From an uncultured delta proteobacterium (GTDB taxonomy: Bacteria > Myxococcota_A > Polyangia > Palsa-1104): a stretch of 64,000 nucleotides of DNA. The stretch is from assembly GCA_963785725.1 (NCBI GenBank), contig CAWAWS010000014.1, positions 32,001 through 96,000 of the forward strand, read 5' to 3'. The notes below the pieces were generated by a model. The model was not told the origin of the DNA and searched no databases. It worked only from the letters and a program-made list of their open reading frames with translations. Positions within the stretch are counted from its first letter, which is position 1. Each line of letters opens with the position of its first letter. This document shows, piece after piece, positions 21 through 10,587 of the stretch. Made by a program: the position numbers and the translations under genes.

Positions 21-275
21 ATGACCATCAAGGGAGCTGTCGTCGCGTCTGCAGTTGCTGGTATGTTCGCCGCCGCCGTGCCCGCCGTCGCTCACGCGAA
101 GGATGCCGGCAAGGTCAAGTGCTCGGGCACCAACAGCTGCAAGGGCAAGGGCGCCTGCAAGAGCGCCGCGAGCTCGTGTAAGGGTATGAACGAGTGCAAG
201 GGCAAGGGCTGGAACGAAATGTCCTCCGCCGATTGCACGAAGAAGGGCGGCACCGTCGTCACCGACGCGAAGTAA
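21..275 (+). CDS. Secreted Cys-rich RiPP precursor, bufferin BufA2-like (MNIO substrate)
   Basis: Signal peptide ending AHA|K; six Cys with repeated N-x-CKG(KG) motifs; GGAGGGG RBS at 10-16; directly upstream of DUF692 and DUF2063 genes. Confidence 0.85.
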   Translation: MTIKGAVVASAVAGMFAAAVPAVAHAKDAGKVKCSGTNSCKGKGACKSAASSCKGMNECKGKGWNEMSSADCTKKGGTVVTDAK

Positions 276-283
276 ATGCTGAT

Positions 284-324
284 GCCGTCAGCCGCGCGCG
301 GCTCGGTCGTGGGCGGCTGACGGC
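284..324 (+). terminator. 12-bp GC stem-loop between precursor and MNIO gene (partial terminator or RNA-stabilising hairpin)
   Basis: GCCGTCAGCCGC (284-295) pairs perfectly with GCGGCTGACGGC (313-324); only a short TTT follows. Confidence 0.6.
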
Positions 325-343
325 CGTTTCACCCAAATAAACC

Positions 344-1183
344 ATGCTGAATCTCCCCTATATCGGCCACGGCCTCGGGTTGCGGACGCCGCATTACACG
401 ACGATCGTCGACGACAAGCCGGCGGTGGATTGGTTCGAGGTCATCAGCGAGAACTTCATGGTCGCCGGTGGCAATCCTCGCCGCGTCCTGCGTGCGGTAC
501 GCGAGAATCATCCGGTCGTGCTGCACGGCGTGTCGCTGTCGATCGGCTCGGTCGATCCGCTCGATGCGCGCTATCTCGACGAGCTGGCGCAGCTGGCGCA
601 CGAAGTCGAGCCGGCGTGGGTGTCCGATCATTTGTGCTGGACCCGCGTCGGCGGCCACCAATCGCACGACCTCTTGCCGCTGCCGTACACGGAAGAGGCG
701 CTGGCGCACGTCGCCGATCGCATCTTGCGCGTCCAGGACAAGCTCAAGCGCCAGATCTTGATCGAGAACGTCTCCAGTTACGTCACTTTTACGCAAAGTA
801 CGATGACCGAGTGGGAGTTCTGCGCGGCGCTGGTCGAGCGCGCCGATTGCGGCCTCTTGCTCGACGTCAACAACGTCTTCGTCAGCGCCTTCAATCACGG
901 CTTCGACGCGCGCGACTTCATCGACGGCATTCCGCGCGGCCGCGTCGGCCAAGTCCACCTCGCGGGCCACTCCGACTGCGGCACGCACCTGCTCGACACG
1001 CACGATCACGCGGTCTGCGACGGCGTGTGGCAGCTCTACCGCCGCGTGCTCGAGCGCTTCGGCCGCGTGTCGACGCTCGTCGAGTGGGACGATTCGATTC
1101 CGCCGTTCGCCGAGCTGCAGGCCGAGTCGAAGAAGGCGGCCGAGCTCGAACGCCAAGTCTTGGGTGACGTCGTTGCTGCGTGA
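344..1183 (+). CDS. DUF692 multinuclear non-heme iron oxidase (MNIO, BufB-like)
   Basis: Motifs GLGLR, FEVISENF, LHGVSLSIG, SDHLCW, IENVSSY, LLLDVNN, HLAGH, LDTH, VEWD. Confidence 0.95.
   Translation: MLNLPYIGHGLGLRTPHYTTIVDDKPAVDWFEVISENFMVAGGNPRRVLRAVRENHPVVLHGVSLSIGSVDPLDARYLDELAQLAHEVEPAWVSDHLCWTRVGGHQSHDLLPLPYTEEALAHVADRILRVQDKLKRQILIENVSSYVTFTQSTMTEWEFCAALVERADCGLLLDVNNVFVSAFNHGFDARDFIDGIPRGRVGQVHLAGHSDCGTHLLDTHDHAVCDGVWQLYRRVLERFGRVSTLVEWDDSIPPFAELQAESKKAAELERQVLGDVVAA
777..797. promoter_or_regulatory. NrtR-type operator inside the DUF692 gene
   Basis: GTTACGTCACTTTTACGCAAA; GT-N7-AC core; encoded by rare codons AGT TAC GTC ACT TTT ACG CAA AGT. Confidence 0.6.
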
Positions 1184-2090
1184 GACCGAGCAGCTGTTCT
1201 GGAAGCTGATCAGCGCGCCCGAAGGCGTCGCGTCGGCTTTGCGTCAAGATGACAATAAGTCGCTCGTGCTCGGCGACGTCTTGCGCGGCGACGAGCGGCT
1301 CGATGCGGTCGAGCGGCTCGACATTTACGCCAACATGTACTTCTACCGGCTGCTCGACATCTTGCGCGCCGATTACGAGGCGGTGTTGGCGGCGGTCGGC
1401 GACACGGCCTTTCACAACCTCGTCACCGACTATCTGCTCGTGTGTCCGTCGCAGCATCCGTCGGTGCGCAACGTCGGGCAGCGCCTGCCGCAGTTCCTCG
1501 ACGGTCACGCGCTCGGCATCGAGCGGCCGTGGCTGGGCGAATTGGCGCGGCTCGAGCGCGCGCGGCTCGAAGTGTTCGACGGGCCCGACGCCGAGACGCT
1601 CGTGCTCGACGAGCTGCGCACGTTGGCGCCGGAAGCGTTCGTCACGCTGAAGCTGCCGCTCATTCCCAACCGAATTCGCGTAGAAGCGACCCACGCCGTC
1701 GACGACTTCTGGCGCGCCGTCGAAGCCCGAACGTCGGCGAGCAGTGAAGATGGCGCGTCGGCGAGCGGTGAAGATGGCGCCGTCGCGAGCGGTGAAGATG
1801 GCGCGTCGGCGAGCGGTGAAGATGGCGCGTCGGCGAGCAGGGAAGTCGCGCTGACCGCACCCACCGCCGAGGCGCGCGTCATGCTCGTCTGGCGTCACGA
1901 GCTGCTCGTATTTCACCGACCGCTCGAGCCGCTCGAGGATGCGGCGCTGGCGCGCGCCGCCGCCGGCGCGACGTTCGGCGCCGTGTGCGATCTCGTCAGC
2001 GAGCACATGTCGATGGAAGAGGCCGGCCCCTTCGCGTTCCAGCTGCTCGCGCGTTGGGTGCAAGACGGCCTGATCGCGCGCTCGCCGTAG
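1164..2090 (+). CDS. DUF2063 (BufC/HvfC-like) MNIO partner protein
   Basis: ERLDIYANMYFYRLLDIL and ELARLERAR motifs; overlaps the end of the DUF692 gene. Confidence 0.88.
   Translation: MTSLLRETEQLFWKLISAPEGVASALRQDDNKSLVLGDVLRGDERLDAVERLDIYANMYFYRLLDILRADYEAVLAAVGDTAFHNLVTDYLLVCPSQHPSVRNVGQRLPQFLDGHALGIERPWLGELARLERARLEVFDGPDAETLVLDELRTLAPEAFVTLKLPLIPNRIRVEATHAVDDFWRAVEARTSASSEDGASASGEDGAVASGEDGASASGEDGASASREVALTAPTAEARVMLVWRHELLVFHRPLEPLEDAALARAAAGATFGAVCDLVSEHMSMEEAGPFAFQLLARWVQDGLIARSP
1238..1258. promoter_or_regulatory. NrtR-type operator inside the DUF2063 gene
   Basis: TTTGCGTCAAGATGACAATAA followed by GTCG; the ACAATAAGTCG end is identical to the three intergenic sites. Confidence 0.65.
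1731..1845 (+). repeat. In-frame 24-bp tandem repeat (about 4.8 units) encoding ASASGEDG
   Basis: Unit GCGTCGGCGAGCGGTGAAGATGGC or close variants at 1731, 1755, 1779, 1803, partial at 1827. Confidence 0.95.
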
Positions 2091-2110
2091 TTACGTCGTT
2101 CGGACAATAA
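2090..2110. promoter_or_regulatory. NrtR operator upstream of nrtR
   Basis: GTTACGTCGTTCGGACAATAA; GT-N7-AC core; intergenic. Confidence 0.7.
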
Positions 2111-2220
2111 GTCGCCGACAAATTCGGCGAACGTGCACGGCCGTCGTCGTGACGGCGTTTCGCACGATCCGTTGCCGGCGATTGCGGATTTCTCGCGTGA
2201 CCTGTGCGAGCATACACGCG

Positions 2221-2949
2221 ATGGATCCGACAGAATCGGGACCGAGATCACGTCAGAATGACGGAACCGAGCGCGTCGTCGCCGGTTACCAGCGCGGCCG
2301 CGGCGAGGCGCACGGGGCGCGCGGCTCGCGCGAGGCGATGGGTGTGGCCGTCGATCTGGCCATTTTCACCGTGCAGGAGCAGCGGCTCGAGCTGCTGCTC
2401 ATTCGCATGAAGCGCGAGCCCTTCACCGGCAAGTGGGCGCTGCCGGGCGGCCGCATTCGCGGCAACGAGACCGTCGAAGCGGCGGCCGAGCGCGAGCTGC
2501 GCGAGAAGACCGGCCTGCGCGACGTCTACTTGGAGCAGCTGTATACGTTCTCGGAGCCGTTCCGCGATCCCGACGCGCGCTGCATCTCCGTCGGACACAT
2601 GGCGCTCATTCGCGGCGACGTGCAGCTGTCGACGACCGACAAATACACGGGAATCGGCTGGTTTCCGCTGGCCAAGCTGCCGCCGCTGGCCTTCGATCAC
2701 GAGCAGATCGCCAAGTATGCGGCCAAGCGCCTGCGCGCCAAGCTGGAGTACACCGACGTGGCGCGCAATCTCTTGGAGAAGACGTTCACGCTCGGCGAGC
2801 TGCAGCGGCTGTACGAGACGATCTTGGGCACGAAGCTCGACGCCCGTAACTTCCAGCGGCGCGCGCAAGCGATCGGGCTCGTCAAGGATACCGGGCGCGT
2901 GCGGCGCGGGCAGGCCTATCGACCGGCGCGCCTCTTCCGGTTCGCTTGA
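2221..2949 (+). CDS. nrtR: NrtR-family Nudix + winged-helix transcriptional regulator (start 2221 or 2338)
   Basis: VAVDLAIF, WALPGG, Nudix box ERELREKTGL, LEQLYTF, RDP, LAFDH, FTLGELQRLYETILG, NFQR, RPARLFRF; next to NAD salvage genes. Confidence 0.92.
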   Translation: MDPTESGPRSRQNDGTERVVAGYQRGRGEAHGARGSREAMGVAVDLAIFTVQEQRLELLLIRMKREPFTGKWALPGGRIRGNETVEAAAERELREKTGLRDVYLEQLYTFSEPFRDPDARCISVGHMALIRGDVQLSTTDKYTGIGWFPLAKLPPLAFDHEQIAKYAAKRLRAKLEYTDVARNLLEKTFTLGELQRLYETILGTKLDARNFQRRAQAIGLVKDTGRVRRGQAYRPARLFRFA

Positions 2950-2955
2950 CGATAC

Positions 2956-2976
2956 TTATTGTCACTCTTACAATAA
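2956..2976. promoter_or_regulatory. NrtR operator upstream of pncA
   Basis: ACTTATTGT-CACTCTT-ACAATAAGT with perfect 9-bp arms (2954-2978). Confidence 0.85.
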
Positions 2977-2994
2977 GTCGCACGAGGTAACAGC

Positions 2995-3570
2995 ATGCGG
3001 ATCGACTCGCACAGCGACGCCCTGATCATCGTGGATCTGCAGCCGGACTTCATGCCCGGCGGCGCGCTGGCCGTGGCCGAAGGCGATCGCGTGGCCGCGC
3101 CAATCGCCCAGCTGGCGCGCCGTTTCTCGACGGTGATCGCGACGCAGGACTGGCATCCGGCGGGGCACGTGTCGTTCGTCGAGCGCGGCGGGCCGTGGCC
3201 GATTCACTGCCGCGCCGGCAGCCCGGGCGCGGCCTTGCACGAGCTGCTGCCGGACGAGCTGGTTACGTCAATTCTACGTAAAGGTACGCGCCTCGACGTC
3301 GACTCTTACAGCGCGTTCGCCGAGAACGACGGCGCCAGCACCGGCCTGGGCGCGTTCTTGCGCGCGCGCGGCGTCTCGCGCGTGTTCGTGTGCGGCTTGG
3401 CGCGCGACTTCTGCGTGCGCGCGACGGCCGTCGACGGCGCTGCCGAAAAGCTCGAGGTCTACGTGCTCGACGACCTGACGCGCGCCGTCGACCCGGCCTC
3501 ACGCGCGCGCGTCGACGCCGAGCTGACGAGCCACGGGGTGCGCGTCATCGACAGCGGCGTGCTGCAGTGA
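2995..3570 (+). CDS. pncA: Nicotinamidase/pyrazinamidase
   Basis: IVDLQPDF, TQDWHP, WPIHC, LRKG, DSYSAF, GLARDFCV. Confidence 0.95.
   Translation: MRIDSHSDALIIVDLQPDFMPGGALAVAEGDRVAAPIAQLARRFSTVIATQDWHPAGHVSFVERGGPWPIHCRAGSPGAALHELLPDELVTSILRKGTRLDVDSYSAFAENDGASTGLGAFLRARGVSRVFVCGLARDFCVRATAVDGAAEKLEVYVLDDLTRAVDPASRARVDAELTSHGVRVIDSGVLQ
3262..3282. promoter_or_regulatory. NrtR-type operator inside pncA
   Basis: G-TTACGT-CAATTCT-ACGTAA-A with perfect 6-bp arms; rare codons GTT ACG TCA ATT CTA CGT AAA GGT. Confidence 0.7.
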
Positions 3571-3679
3571 GCGCGCGGTCGACGGTCAGCCTGCGCGACG
3601 ACGCGCGAGCTCTTACGGCGCCGCGCGTTTGCGGCGGGTTTTCTATGGGTACAGGCACAGGTAACGGCGCGGAGACGAC

Positions 3680-5101
3680 ATGAGCTTGGATACGTTGACG
3701 GTCGATGCCTATCAGCTGACGACGCTCATCGCGCATGCCGACGCCGGGCGGGCGGCGGCCTTGGTCGAGATGGCGTTCTTCTTCCGTAAGATGCCGCGCC
3801 ACCGTAACTTCGTGCTCTTTTGCGGGCTGCGCTCGCTGCTCGAGCATGCGGCGGCGATGCAGCTCGACGACGGCGACCTGCAGGCGCTGCTCGACGATCC
3901 GCTGATCGGCCCGCCGTTGCGTGAGCGGCCGCAACTGTTGGCGCAGCTGCGCGCGCTCGACGGCTTCGCAGGCGAGATCGACGCCATCCCCGAAGGCACG
4001 CCGGCGTTCGCGGGCCCGTCGCTGCGCAGCGACGGCCAGCCGTTTCTCGTCGGGGAGACGCGCATCGGGATTTATACGCCGCTGTTGCAGGTGCGGACGG
4101 ATCTCTTGCGCGCGAAGCTGATCGAGACGCCGTGGCTCGGGCGCATCAATCACATGAGCATGGTGGCGTCGAAGGCGGCGCGCATCGTGCTGGCGGCGGC
4201 GGGCAAGCCGGTGCTCGAGTTCGGCGCGCGGCGCACGCATCCGGCCGCCGCCGTCGACGCCACCTATTCCGCGTATCTGGCGGGCTGCGCCGCGTCGTCG
4301 AACCTGGCGGCGCTGCGCCGCTACGGCGTGCCGGTGCAGGGCACGATGGACCATTTTTACGTGCAGTCGTCGGAGCACGTCGGCGAGCAGTGGCCGGACA
4401 GCGAGCGCGAGGCGTTCGCGCGCTTCTTCAGCGTTTTCCCGCGCAACTCGACGATGCTCGTCGACACTTACGAGACCGAGCTCGGCATTCGTCACGCCGT
4501 CGAGGCGACGGGCGGCAAGCTGACCGGCGTGCGCCTCGACTCCAACGTCACGCCGGCGACGGTGGCGCGCGCGCGCCAGCTGCTCGCCGAGCTCGGCGCG
4601 CCGCAGGCGAAGATCATCGTCAGCGACGGGCTCGACGAGGAGCGCGTGGCTGGGCTCAGCAGCGGCGTCGACGGCTTCGGCGTGGGCGAGAACATCACCT
4701 GCTCGCCCGACGCGGCCGCGGGCGTCGGCGCGGTCGCCAAGCTCACCGTCAACGGCTACGGAAAGCTGACGATGAAGCTGGCGCGCGGCACGGGAAAAGC
4801 GACACTTCCCGGCCGCTTGCAAGTCTACCGCTTCAGCGATCACGATCTGGTGGCGCTCGCCGATGAGGCGGTTCCGTCGGGCGGGCGGGCGCTCTTGCAG
4901 CCGGTGTGGCGCGGTCGTCAGGCGCTGCCGCAGCCGAAGCTGCCGGCGAGCCGCGAGTACGCGCAGGCCGAGATCGCCGCGCTGCCGGCGCCGTTGCGCG
5001 CGCTGGCGACGCCGGCGCCGGGCGCCGCGCCGCTGTGGCCGCTCGTCGCCAGCGACGGCTTGGCCGCGCAAGTCGAGCGCTTCATGACCGCGACGGTATG
5101 A
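3680..5101 (+). CDS. pncB: Nicotinate phosphoribosyltransferase
   Basis: DAYQLT, FFFRK, EFGARR, GTMDH, LVDTY, VRLDS, SDGLDE, GFGVG. Confidence 0.9.
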   Translation: MSLDTLTVDAYQLTTLIAHADAGRAAALVEMAFFFRKMPRHRNFVLFCGLRSLLEHAAAMQLDDGDLQALLDDPLIGPPLRERPQLLAQLRALDGFAGEIDAIPEGTPAFAGPSLRSDGQPFLVGETRIGIYTPLLQVRTDLLRAKLIETPWLGRINHMSMVASKAARIVLAAAGKPVLEFGARRTHPAAAVDATYSAYLAGCAASSNLAALRRYGVPVQGTMDHFYVQSSEHVGEQWPDSEREAFARFFSVFPRNSTMLVDTYETELGIRHAVEATGGKLTGVRLDSNVTPATVARARQLLAELGAPQAKIIVSDGLDEERVAGLSSGVDGFGVGENITCSPDAAAGVGAVAKLTVNGYGKLTMKLARGTGKATLPGRLQVYRFSDHDLVALADEAVPSGGRALLQPVWRGRQALPQPKLPASREYAQAEIAALPAPLRALATPAPGAAPLWPLVASDGLAAQVERFMTATV

Positions 5102-5123
5102 GGATGGACGAGCGTCTGAAATG

Positions 5124-5144
5124 GTTACGTCATATGTACAATAA
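5124..5144. promoter_or_regulatory. NrtR operator upstream of nadE
   Basis: GTTACGTCATATGTACAATAA, ending 12 nt before the nadE ATG. Confidence 0.8.
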
Positions 5145-5156
5145 GTCGAGGCAGCG

Positions 5157-7043
5157 ATGAGGCTCATCCGAATCGCGCTGGGCAACGTCAACACCACCGT
5201 CGGCGCCGTGCGGTCGAACGTCGATCGCGCCGTCGAGCTCGCGCACGCCGCGGCCAAGGACAACGCGACGCTGGTGGCGTTCCCCGAGCAGCTCGTCTCC
5301 GGCTACGCGCCCGAGGATTTGGTGCAGTGGCGCAGCTTCGTCGACGCGCAGTGGGTCGAGCTCGAGCGCTTCGCGGCGGCGACGAAGGCGCTCGGCTGCG
5401 TGCTCGTGCCGGGCGTGACCGTGGCGCGCGGCGACGGCGTCTACAACTGCGCCGCGCTCGTGCATCGCGGCCGCATCTACGGCTTGGTGCCGAAGGAAAA
5501 GCTGCCCACCTACAACGTCTTTTACGAGGGGCGCACGTTCTCGCGCGGCGTTCCCGGCCTGCACGACCAACTGCACGGCGTCCCGTTCGGCGATCTCGTG
5601 TTCGACCTCGACTTCGGCTGCCTCGCGCTCGAGGTGTGCGAGGACATCTGGTCGCCCGACGGTCCGATGCGCCGGCGCTGCTACGCGGGCGCCGAGCTCG
5701 TCGTCAACATCAGCGCGTCGCCGTACCGACTCGGCGTCTACGACACGCGGCGCGAGATGATCTCGACCCGCGCCGGCGACAACCAATGCGTCGTCGCCTA
5801 CGCGACGCTCGTCGGCGCCAACGACGGGCTCATCTTCGACGGCGGCGGCTTCATCGCGCAGAACGGCCGGCTCGTGCACTCGGCGCCGCGCTTCGTCGAA
5901 GGCATCACGGCGGCGACGGTCGATCTCGATCGCACGGCGCGGCTGCGGCGCGAGATCACGACCTGGCGCACCGATCAGGCGACGTTCGCGGCCAGCGCGC
6001 CGGCGATACTTCATGTCAAAGTGACGGAACCAACGAGCGGCCGCGAGGCGCTGCGTTATCCGGCGCCGCCGCAGCAGAGCTTCTTCCTGCCTGCACCCGA
6101 TCAGCCGCGCTCGCGTCGCGCCGAGTTCTGCAACGAGCTGCTCGACGCGCTGGCGCTGGGCGTCGGCGACTACTTCGAGAAGACCGGCGGCGTTCAAGAC
6201 GATCGGCGTGGCGCTGTCGGGTGGGCGCGACTCGCTGCTCGTGCTCATCATCGCGCATCGCTGGGCGCGTGCGCAGCGGGCGCGAAGCCGCGCGACGTCC
6301 TGCGCGCGTTCTTCATGCCGTCGCGCTTCTCGTCGGCGGAGACGCGCTTGGCGGCGGAGGTGGCGGCGCGCGAGCTCGACGTGCCGCTGCAGATCGTGGC
6401 TGTCGACGAGTCGTTCGCGCAGGAGCTGGCCGCCGTCGAGCAGATGCTGCAGCCGGGCGAGAAGCTGACGCCGATGGCGCGGCAGAACGCTGCAGGCGCG
6501 CGTGCGCGCCGAGCGCATGTGGAATTGGTCGAACTGCGCGGCCGGGCTGTTCTTGCAGACGCGCAACATGAGCGAGAAGGCGGTCGGCTACACGCACCAT
6601 CGGCGGCGACGGCGAGGGCGCGCTGGCGGTGATCGCGAACCTGCCGAAGACGGTCGTCAACTACCTGCTCGACTATCTTGTACGAAGACATAACTGGGAA
6701 GGCATTCGACTGACGCTGGTCAAGCCCGCTTCGGCCGAGCTCGCGGACGACATGGAGGACGAGAAGGATCTGATGCCGTTCCCCGTGCTCGACGCCTGCT
6801 TCGCGCTCTACGCCGGCGAGAAGATGGCGCCCGAGCGAGGTGGAGATGGCGCTCGTGGCGATGTTCCCCGAGCACGCGCCGGAGACGCTGCGCGCGTGGA
6901 CGACGAAGTTCGCGCGGCTGTTCACGCAGTCGATTTACAAGTGGGTGCAGGCGCCGCTGTCGCTGCACGTCGGCAACCTCGACCTCGATCGCGAGCGCGC
7001 GCTGCAGCTGCCGGTCGTGCAGCGCACGGAGTGGCAGAAGTAG
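5157..7043 (+). CDS. nadE: Glutamine-dependent NAD+ synthetase; frame broken by about 5 indels near 6190, 6275, 6490, 6595 and 6835 (probably sequencing errors)
   Basis: Nitrilase-like domain (FPE, KEKLPTY, VCEDIW) then synthetase motifs LSGGRDS, NMSEKAVGY, PASAEL and IYKWVQAP found in successive frames. Confidence 0.9.
6010..6030. promoter_or_regulatory. NrtR-type operator inside nadE (reverse orientation)
   Basis: Reverse complement GTTCCGTCACTTTGACATGAA(GT) resembles the 777 site; rare codons ATA CTT CAT GTC AAA. Confidence 0.55.
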
Positions 7044-8802: not shown

Positions 8803-10587
8803 ATGAAGCGACTCGCGCTCTTCGTCATCCTCGTCGGCGCCGTGCCAGCGGCCGCCGCGCCGACGCCTACGGCGACGGGAACTTCGCCGGCGGCGGCATT
8901 CTTACGGCTGTATAACTCGATTTATACCGGCCTTTATCGGACGGCGAGCGAGGCGTCGTGGATCGCGTCGACCGACGTGGGTGACGCGCATGAAGCGGCG
9001 CGCACGGCGGCGAATACGGCGGCGGCGGTGTTCGGCGGCGATCGCGCCGTCATCGACGCGGCGCGCGCCTTCCTCGCCAATCGCGCGGCGTTGCCGCCGA
9101 TGGAAGCGCGCGAGCTCGACAAGATCCTGCTCGGCGCCGCCGAAGGGCCGGGCACGATTCCGACGGTGACGGCGGCGCGCGTCGCGGCCGAGTCGCGCCA
9201 GGCGTCGGTCATGGACGGGTATACCTTCCATCTCGACGGCAAACCGGCGAGCGCCAACGATATCGACAATGTGCTGCAGCACTCCAAAGATTTGCAGAAG
9301 CGGCGCGAAGCCTGGGAAGCGTCGAAAGAGATTGGGAAGCCGCTGAAACCGGGTCTGGTGCAGCTGCAAAAGCTGCGTAATCAGGTCGCGCGCGAAATGA
9401 AACATACCGGTTATTTCGCGCTCCAAGTGGCCGACTACGATATGACCGACGCCGAGATGATGAAGCTGCTCGACGGCTTCGTCGCCGATACGCGGCCGCT
9501 CTATCGCAAGCTGCACGCCTGGGTTCGCGCGTCGTTGGCCGAGCGCTATCATCAGCCGATTCCCAAATTGATTCCGGCACATTGGATCAACAATCGGTGG
9601 TCGCAAGAGTGGGACGGGATGGTCGACGGCGCGGTCGATTTGGATCCGCTCTTCAAAGACAAGAAGCCGGAGTGGATCGTGCAGACGGCGGAGCGGTTTT
9701 ATACGTCGATGGGATTCCCGGCGCTGTCGAAATCGTTTTGGGAGAAATCGGATCTATATGCATTACCGGCGGACTCCAAGCGCCACAAGAACGCGCATGC
9801 GTCGGCCTGGCATATCGATCTCGATCAGGACGTGCGCTCGTTGATGAGCGTGACGGCGGATTCGCAGTGGTTCTTCACGGCCCATCATGAATTGGGTCAT
9901 ATCTATTATTTCTTGTCCTATTCACGGCCGGAAGTTCCGCCGATTCTGCGGCAGGGATTGTGTCGCGCGATGCACGAGGCGGTCGGCGATCTGGCGTCGA
10001 TCGCGGCCAAGCAGCCGACGTATCTGCAAGCCGTGGGCGTGCTGCCGAAGGGGCAAAAGCTCGATCAGCAGAAGCAGCTGCTCGACGAGGCGCTGACGTC
10101 GGCGATCCCGTTCGTCGCCTGGTCGGCGGGGACGATCGCGCACTTCGAGCACGATCTATACGAGAAGGATTTACCGCCGAGTGAATGGCAGAAGCGTTGG
10201 TGGAAATATGTGGCCGAGTTCCAAGGCGTGGCGCCGCCGTCGGAGCGGCCGGCCGATGGCTGCGACGCGTGCACGAAGACGCATATCAACGATAACCCGG
10301 CGGCCTATTACCAATATGCGATCGCGGCGGTCATCAAATATCAATTACACGATCATATTTGCCGCGTGATTCTGCATACCGATCCGCATTCGTGCAGCTA
10401 TTACGGACATAAAGAGGTCGGCGATTTCTTGCGCTCGATATTGCAGCTGGGCGCGACGCGGCCGTGGCGCGAGGTCATCGCGGAAGCGACGGGCGAGCCG
10501 CTGTCGACGCGCGCGCTGATGGAGTATTTCAAGCCGCTCGATGGCTGGCTCGACGAGCAGCTGAAGGGTAAGCCGATCGGCTGGTAA
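8803..10587 (+). CDS. Secreted M2 metallopeptidase (ACE-like peptidyl-dipeptidase A)
   Basis: Signal peptide; IPAHW, HASAW, HHELGH and HEAVGD zinc motifs. Confidence 0.93.
   Translation: MKRLALFVILVGAVPAAAAPTPTATGTSPAAAFLRLYNSIYTGLYRTASEASWIASTDVGDAHEAARTAANTAAAVFGGDRAVIDAARAFLANRAALPPMEARELDKILLGAAEGPGTIPTVTAARVAAESRQASVMDGYTFHLDGKPASANDIDNVLQHSKDLQKRREAWEASKEIGKPLKPGLVQLQKLRNQVAREMKHTGYFALQVADYDMTDAEMMKLLDGFVADTRPLYRKLHAWVRASLAERYHQPIPKLIPAHWINNRWSQEWDGMVDGAVDLDPLFKDKKPEWIVQTAERFYTSMGFPALSKSFWEKSDLYALPADSKRHKNAHASAWHIDLDQDVRSLMSVTADSQWFFTAHHELGHIYYFLSYSRPEVPPILRQGLCRAMHEAVGDLASIAAKQPTYLQAVGVLPKGQKLDQQKQLLDEALTSAIPFVAWSAGTIAHFEHDLYEKDLPPSEWQKRWWKYVAEFQGVAPPSERPADGCDACTKTHINDNPAAYYQYAIAAVIKYQLHDHICRVILHTDPHSCSYYGHKEVGDFLRSILQLGATRPWREVIAEATGEPLSTRALMEYFKPLDGWLDEQLKGKPIGW

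Follow-up and report, generated by a model that had tools for sequence, protein, structure and literature searches.

In the genus of an uncultured soil delta proteobacterium placed in the Polyangia (GTDB lineage Palsa-1104), a DNA motif of the kind bound by the repressor NrtR, which sits on the promoter of genes for the recycling of nicotinamide adenine dinucleotide (NAD) and is single in most more distant relatives, is multiplied, as read from the comparison of genomes, into three patches. The stretch under study, hereafter the window, is 64,000 nucleotides long (C14:32001-96000) and belongs to an assembly of 8.9 Mb with 68% G+C, 47 contigs and 88% completeness; this genome (G000) and its relatives G001-G004 are referred to as the genus genomes, and the sister genera include G010, G012, G013, and G014. 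The operator type is known from NrtR regulons (Rodionov et al., 2008; PMC2330246), and what is new at the level of sequence is its unusual and conserved regional organization. Tentatively, and at a little under an even chance, we consider that the cloud of sites around the NAD-salvage operator concentrates NrtR there, and that the remote clouds are its reservoirs or partners.

The preliminary description of the window had listed an array of at least seven NrtR-type operators, four of them within genes. All seven 21-mers were confirmed exactly as listed (777..797, 1238..1258, 2090..2110, 2956..2976, 3262..3282, 5124..5144 and, on the reverse strand, 6010..6030), all carry the GT-N7-AC core within a 21-bp palindrome, and the extension ACAATAAGTCG follows the copies at 1238, 2090, 2956, and 5124, as had been noted. 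The array nevertheless extends beyond the window locus, and the full motif is closer to 27 bp, in which the GT-N7-AC core is invariant and the half-sites are of two types, TTATTGTC and GTTRCGTC. The four copies in coding sequence lie in bufB (777; codons 144-153, with rare AGT/ACT codons), bufC (1238), pncA (3262), and nadE (6010). The three copies called intergenic also exist, but only that at 2956 is a predicted promoter operator: the copy at 2090 abuts the stop codon of bufC, where relatives have a methyltransferase gene, and shows no promoter match, while the copy at 5124, in the pncB-nadE gap, has a promoter score of 7 of 12. An eighth, weaker site (2247..2267; 17 bits) lies within a methyltransferase remnant and has a homologous site in G002; beyond these eight, no position in the 64-kb window reaches 9 bits.

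Several controls set these sites apart from the background of the genome. With a matrix trained on 13 sites that lie beyond the window, the seven window sites are the seven best non-training matches in 8.9 Mb, a test that is independent only for the four intragenic sites, as the training sites had been picked with a matrix of the other three. A second matrix, built from 40 sites of related genomes that were themselves selected with the matrix of this genome, gives 25 matches of at least 19 bits in the genome and none in the reversed genome. Twenty of these 25 strong sites lie within 5 kb of another one; 20,000 random placements gave 0.65 such sites on average and never more than 8. Scored with an intergenic-site matrix, predicted coding sequence yields 11 matches of at least 16 bits vs. 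a mean of 0.33 in 12 synonymous resamplings. Chance or a codon artefact as the origin of the sites is ruled out by the reversed-genome, synonymous-resampling, and random-placement controls. Scores are bimodal with few intermediates, and a halo of weak sites around the clouds was looked for and not found. By their centers, 14 of the 25 strong sites are intragenic, five lie in convergent gaps, five in tandem gaps, and one in a divergent gap; the intragenic ones are scattered evenly along gene length, and the order of mixed half-sites (5:5 here, 30:28 in relatives) reveals no orientation bias.

Rather than being evenly dense across the genome, the motif is confined for 21 of its 25 strong sites to three regions of seven sites each: the window, C7 589.8-593.0 kb, and C19 156.6-167.9 kb. 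The C7 cloud covers a MoxR-DUF58-BatA locus (genes for a glycoside hydrolase, BatA/vWA, DUF58, and MoxR), and the C19 cloud lies in a MurU-ligA-ubiD region, 43-54 kb from dnaA, over genes for a PP2C phosphatase, a nucleotidyltransferase, a GNAT protein, Ugd, and eut. In strength both remote clouds equal the home cloud, and neither has an NAD-salvage gene or a promoter-overlapping site. A paralogue of NrtR was not found at either of them, the 88%-complete genome giving a single NrtR_WHD match. There is a weak hint, without a background comparison, of NAD(H)-using host genes at the clouds (ligA, Ugd, short-chain dehydrogenases/reductases, and menaquinone genes).

The copy at 2956, at the center of the home cloud, is likely the sole classical operator among the window sites, a prediction made from promoter overlap. 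It spans the spacer and the -10 hexamer of a sigma-70-like promoter (TTGACG-17-TACAAT; 2946..2974, + strand) that would serve pncA-pncB-nadE, is conserved in the family, and is the only sigma-70-like promoter found between window positions 1 and 7800; its -35 element is made by the end of the nrtR gene. The position of operator and promoter is kept in the eight of eight family relatives shown, with a weaker -10 hexamer in G012. Among the 25 strong sites only 2956 has a promoter match of at least 9 of 12 to the sigma-70 consensus; none of the other 24 attains this value on that consensus, other sigma factors lying outside the scan. Likewise, 7 of 113 sites at the loci of relatives have such a match, and all seven are the operator equivalent to 2956. 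The nrtR-#pncA-pncB arrangement and an operator over promoter elements are as described for NrtR (PMC2330246, Table 1 for the layout), as are the 21-bp GT-N7-AC palindrome and a Nudix domain with a degenerate Nudix box joined to a winged helix (PMC2330246). Described NrtR sites overlap the promoter or occupy the interval from there to the start codon, at most in tandem, and RegPrecise holds 96 NrtR sites in 28 proteobacterial regulons, i.e., 3.4 each (PMC5343134). The present genome differs from described NrtR regulons in its 25 strong sites, 14 of them intragenic, arranged in three clouds with one site at a promoter, and in its effector pocket.

The regions outlast the individual sites. When the sites of the genus genomes are placed on the map of this one, the home and BatA regions are occupied in five of five and the origin-proximal region in four of five, while individual sites turn over and minor clusters are common to subsets of the genus. 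Around the operator, the home cloud extends from -2.2 to +3.1 kb in this genome, from -5.6 to +5.9 kb in G002 (12 sites in 58 kb scanned), and from -4.1 to +5.2 kb in G004 (14 sites in 54 kb scanned); it is roughly symmetric, reaching up to about 6 kb, and crosses operon borders. In relatives it enters convergent aldo-keto reductase and peptidase genes, and sites are also found upstream of bufA. The gene of an angiotensin-converting-enzyme-like M2 peptidase (window 8803-10587) carries cloud sites in G001, G002, and G004 and none here. An NrtR-type site also lies within a gene for a XerD-like recombinase, so named from inspection of the protein N-terminus, in three genus genomes (L069 2592 in G003, L035 7965 in G002, and L081 698 in G001).

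Outside the genus, the operator is the only site at the locus in G010 (one site in 49 kb scanned), G013, and G014, and G012 has weak extra copies at -364, +352, and +2082 relative to the operator; G010 has, at a separate locus, a tandem pair of sites upstream of two genes. Counted with a degenerate International Union of Pure and Applied Chemistry (IUPAC) pattern, sites number 32 here (control, 4), 48 in G001 (2), 16 in G003 (6), and 54 in G004 (4); with a near-identical pattern, strand hits number 35 in G002 (control, 3) and 4-15 in G010, G011, G013, and G014 vs. 5-13 for the control. The loci of most, though not all, of these pattern matches were inspected. Family genomes in which NrtR was not found have 0-5 strand hits, near control. 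A scan of metagenomes gave 13 loci, one of them close (L049, with the operator, a pncA site, and a site inside nrtR). Remote clouds as ancestral members of the regulon were considered and rejected: the BatA loci of five sister-genus genomes hold no site of at least 12 bits in the 1.8-5.1 kb examined, and no remote cluster of this kind appears in the whole-genome pattern lists. The history likely led from a single operator, as in G010, through weak sites flanking it by about 350 bp on each side, as in G012, to the full clouds of the genus.

The preliminary description had also suggested selection on the DNA of the intragenic copies. The DNA of these sites itself appears to be selected, because the copies use rare codons, stay conserved, and have required amino-acid changes. 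Third-position G+C is 0.89 genome-wide, and the intragenic sites use codons of 1-2% usage; in the 13 of 13 tested, all four of the window included, P was at most 1.1e-4 given the peptide, the sites having been chosen post hoc. The sites in bufC, pncA, and nadE are found at the same codons in four of four genus relatives, some of them weakly. That of bufC scores 13.7-23.7 bits there, and the bufC peptide at this place is remodeled to SALRQDDNKS in this genome. In each of the five genus genomes the pncA site stands 304-306 bp away from the operator, G012 having a weak copy of it, and the nadE site is absent in four of four sister-genus genomes aligned. The bufB site is kept in three relatives (G001, G002, and G004), lost in G003, and absent in G010 and G012. 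The intergenic site at 5124 has no counterpart in G001, G002, and G004 (G003 is uncovered there), and other intragenic sites are lineage-specific, e.g., those in pncB, ligA, ubiX, and peptidase genes. A/T-ending codons are identical to those of genus relatives in 59 of 83 cases inside sites vs. 148 of 461 outside, and show no excess in identity to sister genera (4 of 25 inside vs. 34 of 172 outside), in counts that cover six genes and comparisons that are not independent. Rare codons are conserved across species at about 75% protein identity, and non-conservative residue changes are tolerated. At the bufB, bufC, and nadE sites and at three BatA sites, no synonymous recoding of the sister-genus peptides attains 19 bits; the sister-genus pncA peptide can reach this score.

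The assignment of the motif to NrtR, made in the preliminary description, is strengthened by the conservation of the GT-N7-AC palindrome between nrtR and pncA across the family and by the sole NrtR_WHD match in the genome. The nrtR gene (2338..2949, + strand; 203 aa) codes for an N-terminal Nudix domain fused to the NrtR winged helix (PF00293 and PF21906, both above cut-off); its start is most likely at 2338, which fits orthologues of 208-209 residues. The best solved relatives of the protein are AraR and SoNrtR, and the fold of a sister-genus homologue matches both. Its Nudix box is degenerate (RELREKTGL, one glutamate being replaced by Lys57), pncA, pncB, and nadE lie directly downstream of its gene, and the helix and wing motifs are common across the family, consistent with one DNA motif. 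Aligned with SoNrtR (residue numbering from PMC4666351), the ADP-ribose pocket keeps the equivalents of Lys76 and Arg95 and the pocket histidine. ADP-ribose as the effector is doubtful nonetheless, because Arg41 is replaced by Met24 and Arg98 by Asp79, and Tyr10/Phe15 have no counterpart; the same changes are found in single-site sister genera. The protein lacks an 11-residue C-terminal tail of the sister genera. Among 119 homologues, 56, the closest ones, end right after the last wing strand, 54 are tailed, and 9 are unscorable; in the genomes checked, tail loss coincides with the cloud-bearing genus, a coincidence from which no cause is drawn; a monomer model made for the tail question was of low confidence and uninformative. 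A more distant NrtR (about 50% identical, with an intact EE in the Nudix box) occurs in G032 and G038 (L019 6857-11144 and L020), flanked by an SPFH/Band 7 gene pair on one side and a SIR2-like gene on the other; the window motif has no match there.

The home cloud could be accounted for as follows. Site 2956 would be an ordinary NrtR operator over the pncA-pncB-nadE promoter, and the flanking copies would recruit additional NrtR dimers and keep the local repressor concentration high over some 5-12 kb, acting as auxiliary operators through looping or fast re-binding in the manner of lacO2; NrtR is the presumed binder throughout. lacO2 acts as an auxiliary operator, and the lac and gal systems use one or two such sites for a tetramer or an HU-aided loop. 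As there, an extra site lies inside the first regulated gene (3262, +306 bp), and extra sites flank the promoter operator, which is true of the home cloud but not of the two remote ones; in contrast to lac and gal, 7-13 sites are spread over up to 12 kb, remote clouds are added, and NrtR is known only as a dimer. Local copy number would matter more than the position of each copy, which would account for the persistence of regions despite the turnover of their sites. The remote patches might then be reservoirs or contact partners of the home patch.

Several observations weigh against this proposal. Of the 21 clustered sites, 14 lie in remote regions without a promoter-overlapping site or an NAD-salvage gene, and auxiliary operators alone leave them unexplained. 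The NrtR proteins described are dimers (PMC4666351, PMC6800001), and looping would require dimer-dimer contact. Without cooperativity, extra sites would lower rather than raise the occupancy of the operator. No fixed helical phasing or tandem spacing was seen among the sites, which share no common helical phase. Finally, most intragenic PhoB sites in E. coli are inert, and also unconserved (PMC9934606).

Alternatively, NrtR might, like other repressors of the lineage, have been recruited as a bridging protein, the sites being chromosome-architecture anchors that hold the three clouds together or form compact domains, an explanation that we regard as unlikely, if worth serious consideration. 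The remote clouds match the home cloud in strength, are kept in five of five (BatA) and four of five (origin-proximal) genus genomes, and occupy unrelated genes and convergent gaps, one of them at 43-54 kb from dnaA; other motifs, described below, build similar multi-block clouds. The nearest architectural precedent, by analogy, would be GalR of E. coli, a metabolic repressor with many non-promoter operators near unrelated genes, of which 89 of 165 are off promoters and were proposed as anchoring sites (PMC5110547). GalR sites are, however, dispersed round the chromosome, whereas the NrtR-type sites are strong, tightly clustered, and conserved at a cost in codons and residues. Moreover, the home cloud is centered on a working-type operator, no oligomerization beyond the dimer is known for NrtR, and a symmetric placement of the clouds on two chromosome arms is not evident from the coordinates in G002.

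The preliminary description had named road-blocking among possible effects, and roadblocks alone fit poorly: auxiliary or anchoring sites are favored over them because the cloud is symmetric, ignores operon borders, occupying convergent gaps as well, and has no orientation bias. Slowing of RNA polymerase by bound NrtR within the buf-nrtR-pncA-pncB-nadE run, which would yield autoregulation of nrtR and graded repression, is improbable in our estimation. Four sites do lie upstream of nrtR in this run, to which relatives add sites upstream of bufA, and the single operator of the outgroups is downstream of nrtR and therefore gives no autoregulation. Genes outside this transcription unit host sites equally, however, as do the ends of convergent genes, and the sites spread evenly along genes. 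The stoperators of cluster A mycobacteriophages offer a parallel in their more than 20 repressor sites away from promoters, but these occur in a phage genome as asymmetric 13-mers that point in the direction of transcription, as opposed to unbiased palindromes on a bacterial chromosome (PMC9283540); roadblock tests with PhoB were negative (PMC9934606).

Slightly less probable again is titration, in which some 25-50 extra sites would absorb NrtR as decoys and set the repression threshold of the essential nadE operon, perhaps taking over from effector control, the pocket of the protein being altered and its tail lost. The many strong promoter-less sites agree with it, as do the replaced ADP-ribose phosphate contacts and the missing tail in the 56 closest of 119 homologues, but titration needs no clustering, which 20 of 25 sites show within 5 kb, and the pocket changes are common to single-site sister genera. 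A non-adaptive ratchet, in which concentrated repressor would shield binding-improving mismatches from repair so that sites accumulate without benefit, seems very improbable. It would suit a home cloud centered on the regulator gene and the building of clouds by several unrelated motifs in one lineage, and interference of factors with repair has been reported in eukaryotes; it is countered by bimodal scores with few intermediates and no halo, by rare codons conserved across species at about 75% protein identity, by tolerated non-conservative residue changes, and by the presence of MutL in four of five genus genomes, which also led us to reject loss of mismatch repair as the cause of the clouds. 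It is hardly credible that the motif is an RNA hairpin or the site of another protein, for although the remote clouds have no nrtR link and NrtR binding is a prediction, the identical motif is the conserved nrtR-pncA operator, genomes where NrtR was not found are near control, and, of 95 intragenic sites in relatives, 58 combine half-sites of the two types, which pair poorly with each other.

NrtR is, from the motif counts in this genome, one of several regulators whose sites have multiplied in the lineage. GntR/FadR-type TGGTT-N-AACCA sites number 162 in five blocks, often as 21-bp tandems (C7 356-390 and 421-436 kb, C39 304-316 kb, and C33 40-64 kb). A further 76 sites of the form TGTGC-N4-GCACA, which we take to be ARG-box-like, lie with 21-bp tandem spacing at C7 453-540 kb, around argB/argC-like genes and also in unrelated genes; no ArgR family match was found in the 88%-complete genome, and strand hits of the pattern number 5-25 in genus genomes, compared with 0-2 in the other 16 genomes searched. 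GTCAA-N5-TTGAC occurs 96 times, many copies forming 21-bp tandem arrays at gene ends near acyl-CoA genes (C4 192-197 kb, C29 26-32 kb, C6 118-120 kb, and others), and 29 TGATA-N10-TATCA sites (GTGATAG-N8-CTATCAC-type), with a 90-bp-spaced array among them, surround a TetR-like gene (C39 656-664 kb and C33 208-209 kb). From genome to genome, the cloud size of one motif varies independently of that of another, and clouds as a general trait restricted to the genus were rejected on finding 31 GntR-type sites in G012. A broader possibility, rather unlikely though it deserves mention, is that this Polyangia lineage evolved sequence-encoded chromosome hubs that fold site-rich domains of 5-30 kb together. 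NrtR, the GntR/FadR type, the ARG-box-type binder, and probable TetR types might each, with the same reserve, have written tens of operators, in domains that would include remote ones without a regulated promoter and would be paid for in codon and amino-acid changes; such hubs might form a bacterial counterpart of eukaryotic homotypic site clusters.

Clusters of parS are likewise made of palindromes, placed regardless of gene function and inside genes. The window motif differs from the canonical parS consensus and is tied to the NrtR promoter, and its identity as parS was ruled out, canonical parS-type sites being found elsewhere: three lie 10 kb from dnaA (C19 123.7 kb), one of them inside a gene start, and one perfect site is at C16 16.1 kb. 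A dif-like scan gave no match.

The genes hosting the home cloud form a co-directional run on the + strand, in a genome for which Polyangia is the label on public homologues of the window NrtR. It begins with the gene of a bufA2-type bufferin precursor (21..275; NF050166 above cut-off), bufB, coding for an MNIO bufferin maturase (344..1183; NF050167, PF05114), and a bufC-like DUF2063 gene (1164..2090; PF09836). A 3'-end remnant of a lost methyltransferase gene (2215..2273, + strand), recognized by blastn/tblastx matches to G001, G002, and G003, then precedes nrtR, at the place where G001-G004 and G010 have a methyltransferase gene of 460 aa. Downstream are pncA for a nicotinamidase (2995..3570; PF00857, with NF008623 below cut-off), pncB for a nicotinate phosphoribosyltransferase (3680..5101; PF04095), which holds a site in G001, G002, and G004, and nadE for a glutamine-dependent NAD synthetase (5157..7043). 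The last is a single gene of 624-640 residues in most relatives and is broken here by several single-base differences between 6190 and 6830; these apparent frameshifts are likely long-read assembly errors, because short-read contigs of related soil organisms do not have them. The bufC gene contains about four tandem 27-bp units at 1735-1840 (ASASGEDG-like peptide) and is some 30-40 residues longer than its orthologues. The bufferin-type cluster (window 21-2090) leads straight into nrtR, also in G010 and G012, an adjacency that may couple NAD salvage to expression under metal stress.

No account of NrtR site clouds was found in the main texts of the open-access literature. The function of intragenic transcription factor sites in bacteria is debated, and a careful study of PhoB found most of its sites to lack both activity and conservation (PMC9934606). 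The sites described here belong to a well-studied repressor family; those within genes are strong and clustered, and they have been conserved in spite of codon bias and of the protein sequence. The relatives provide natural stages for comparison, with one site, few weak flanking sites, or full clouds. A small protein and defined DNA make the question of intragenic sites directly testable. If the remote clouds do serve as points of contact, a local metabolic repressor can turn into an organizer of the chromosome just by the multiplication of its sites.

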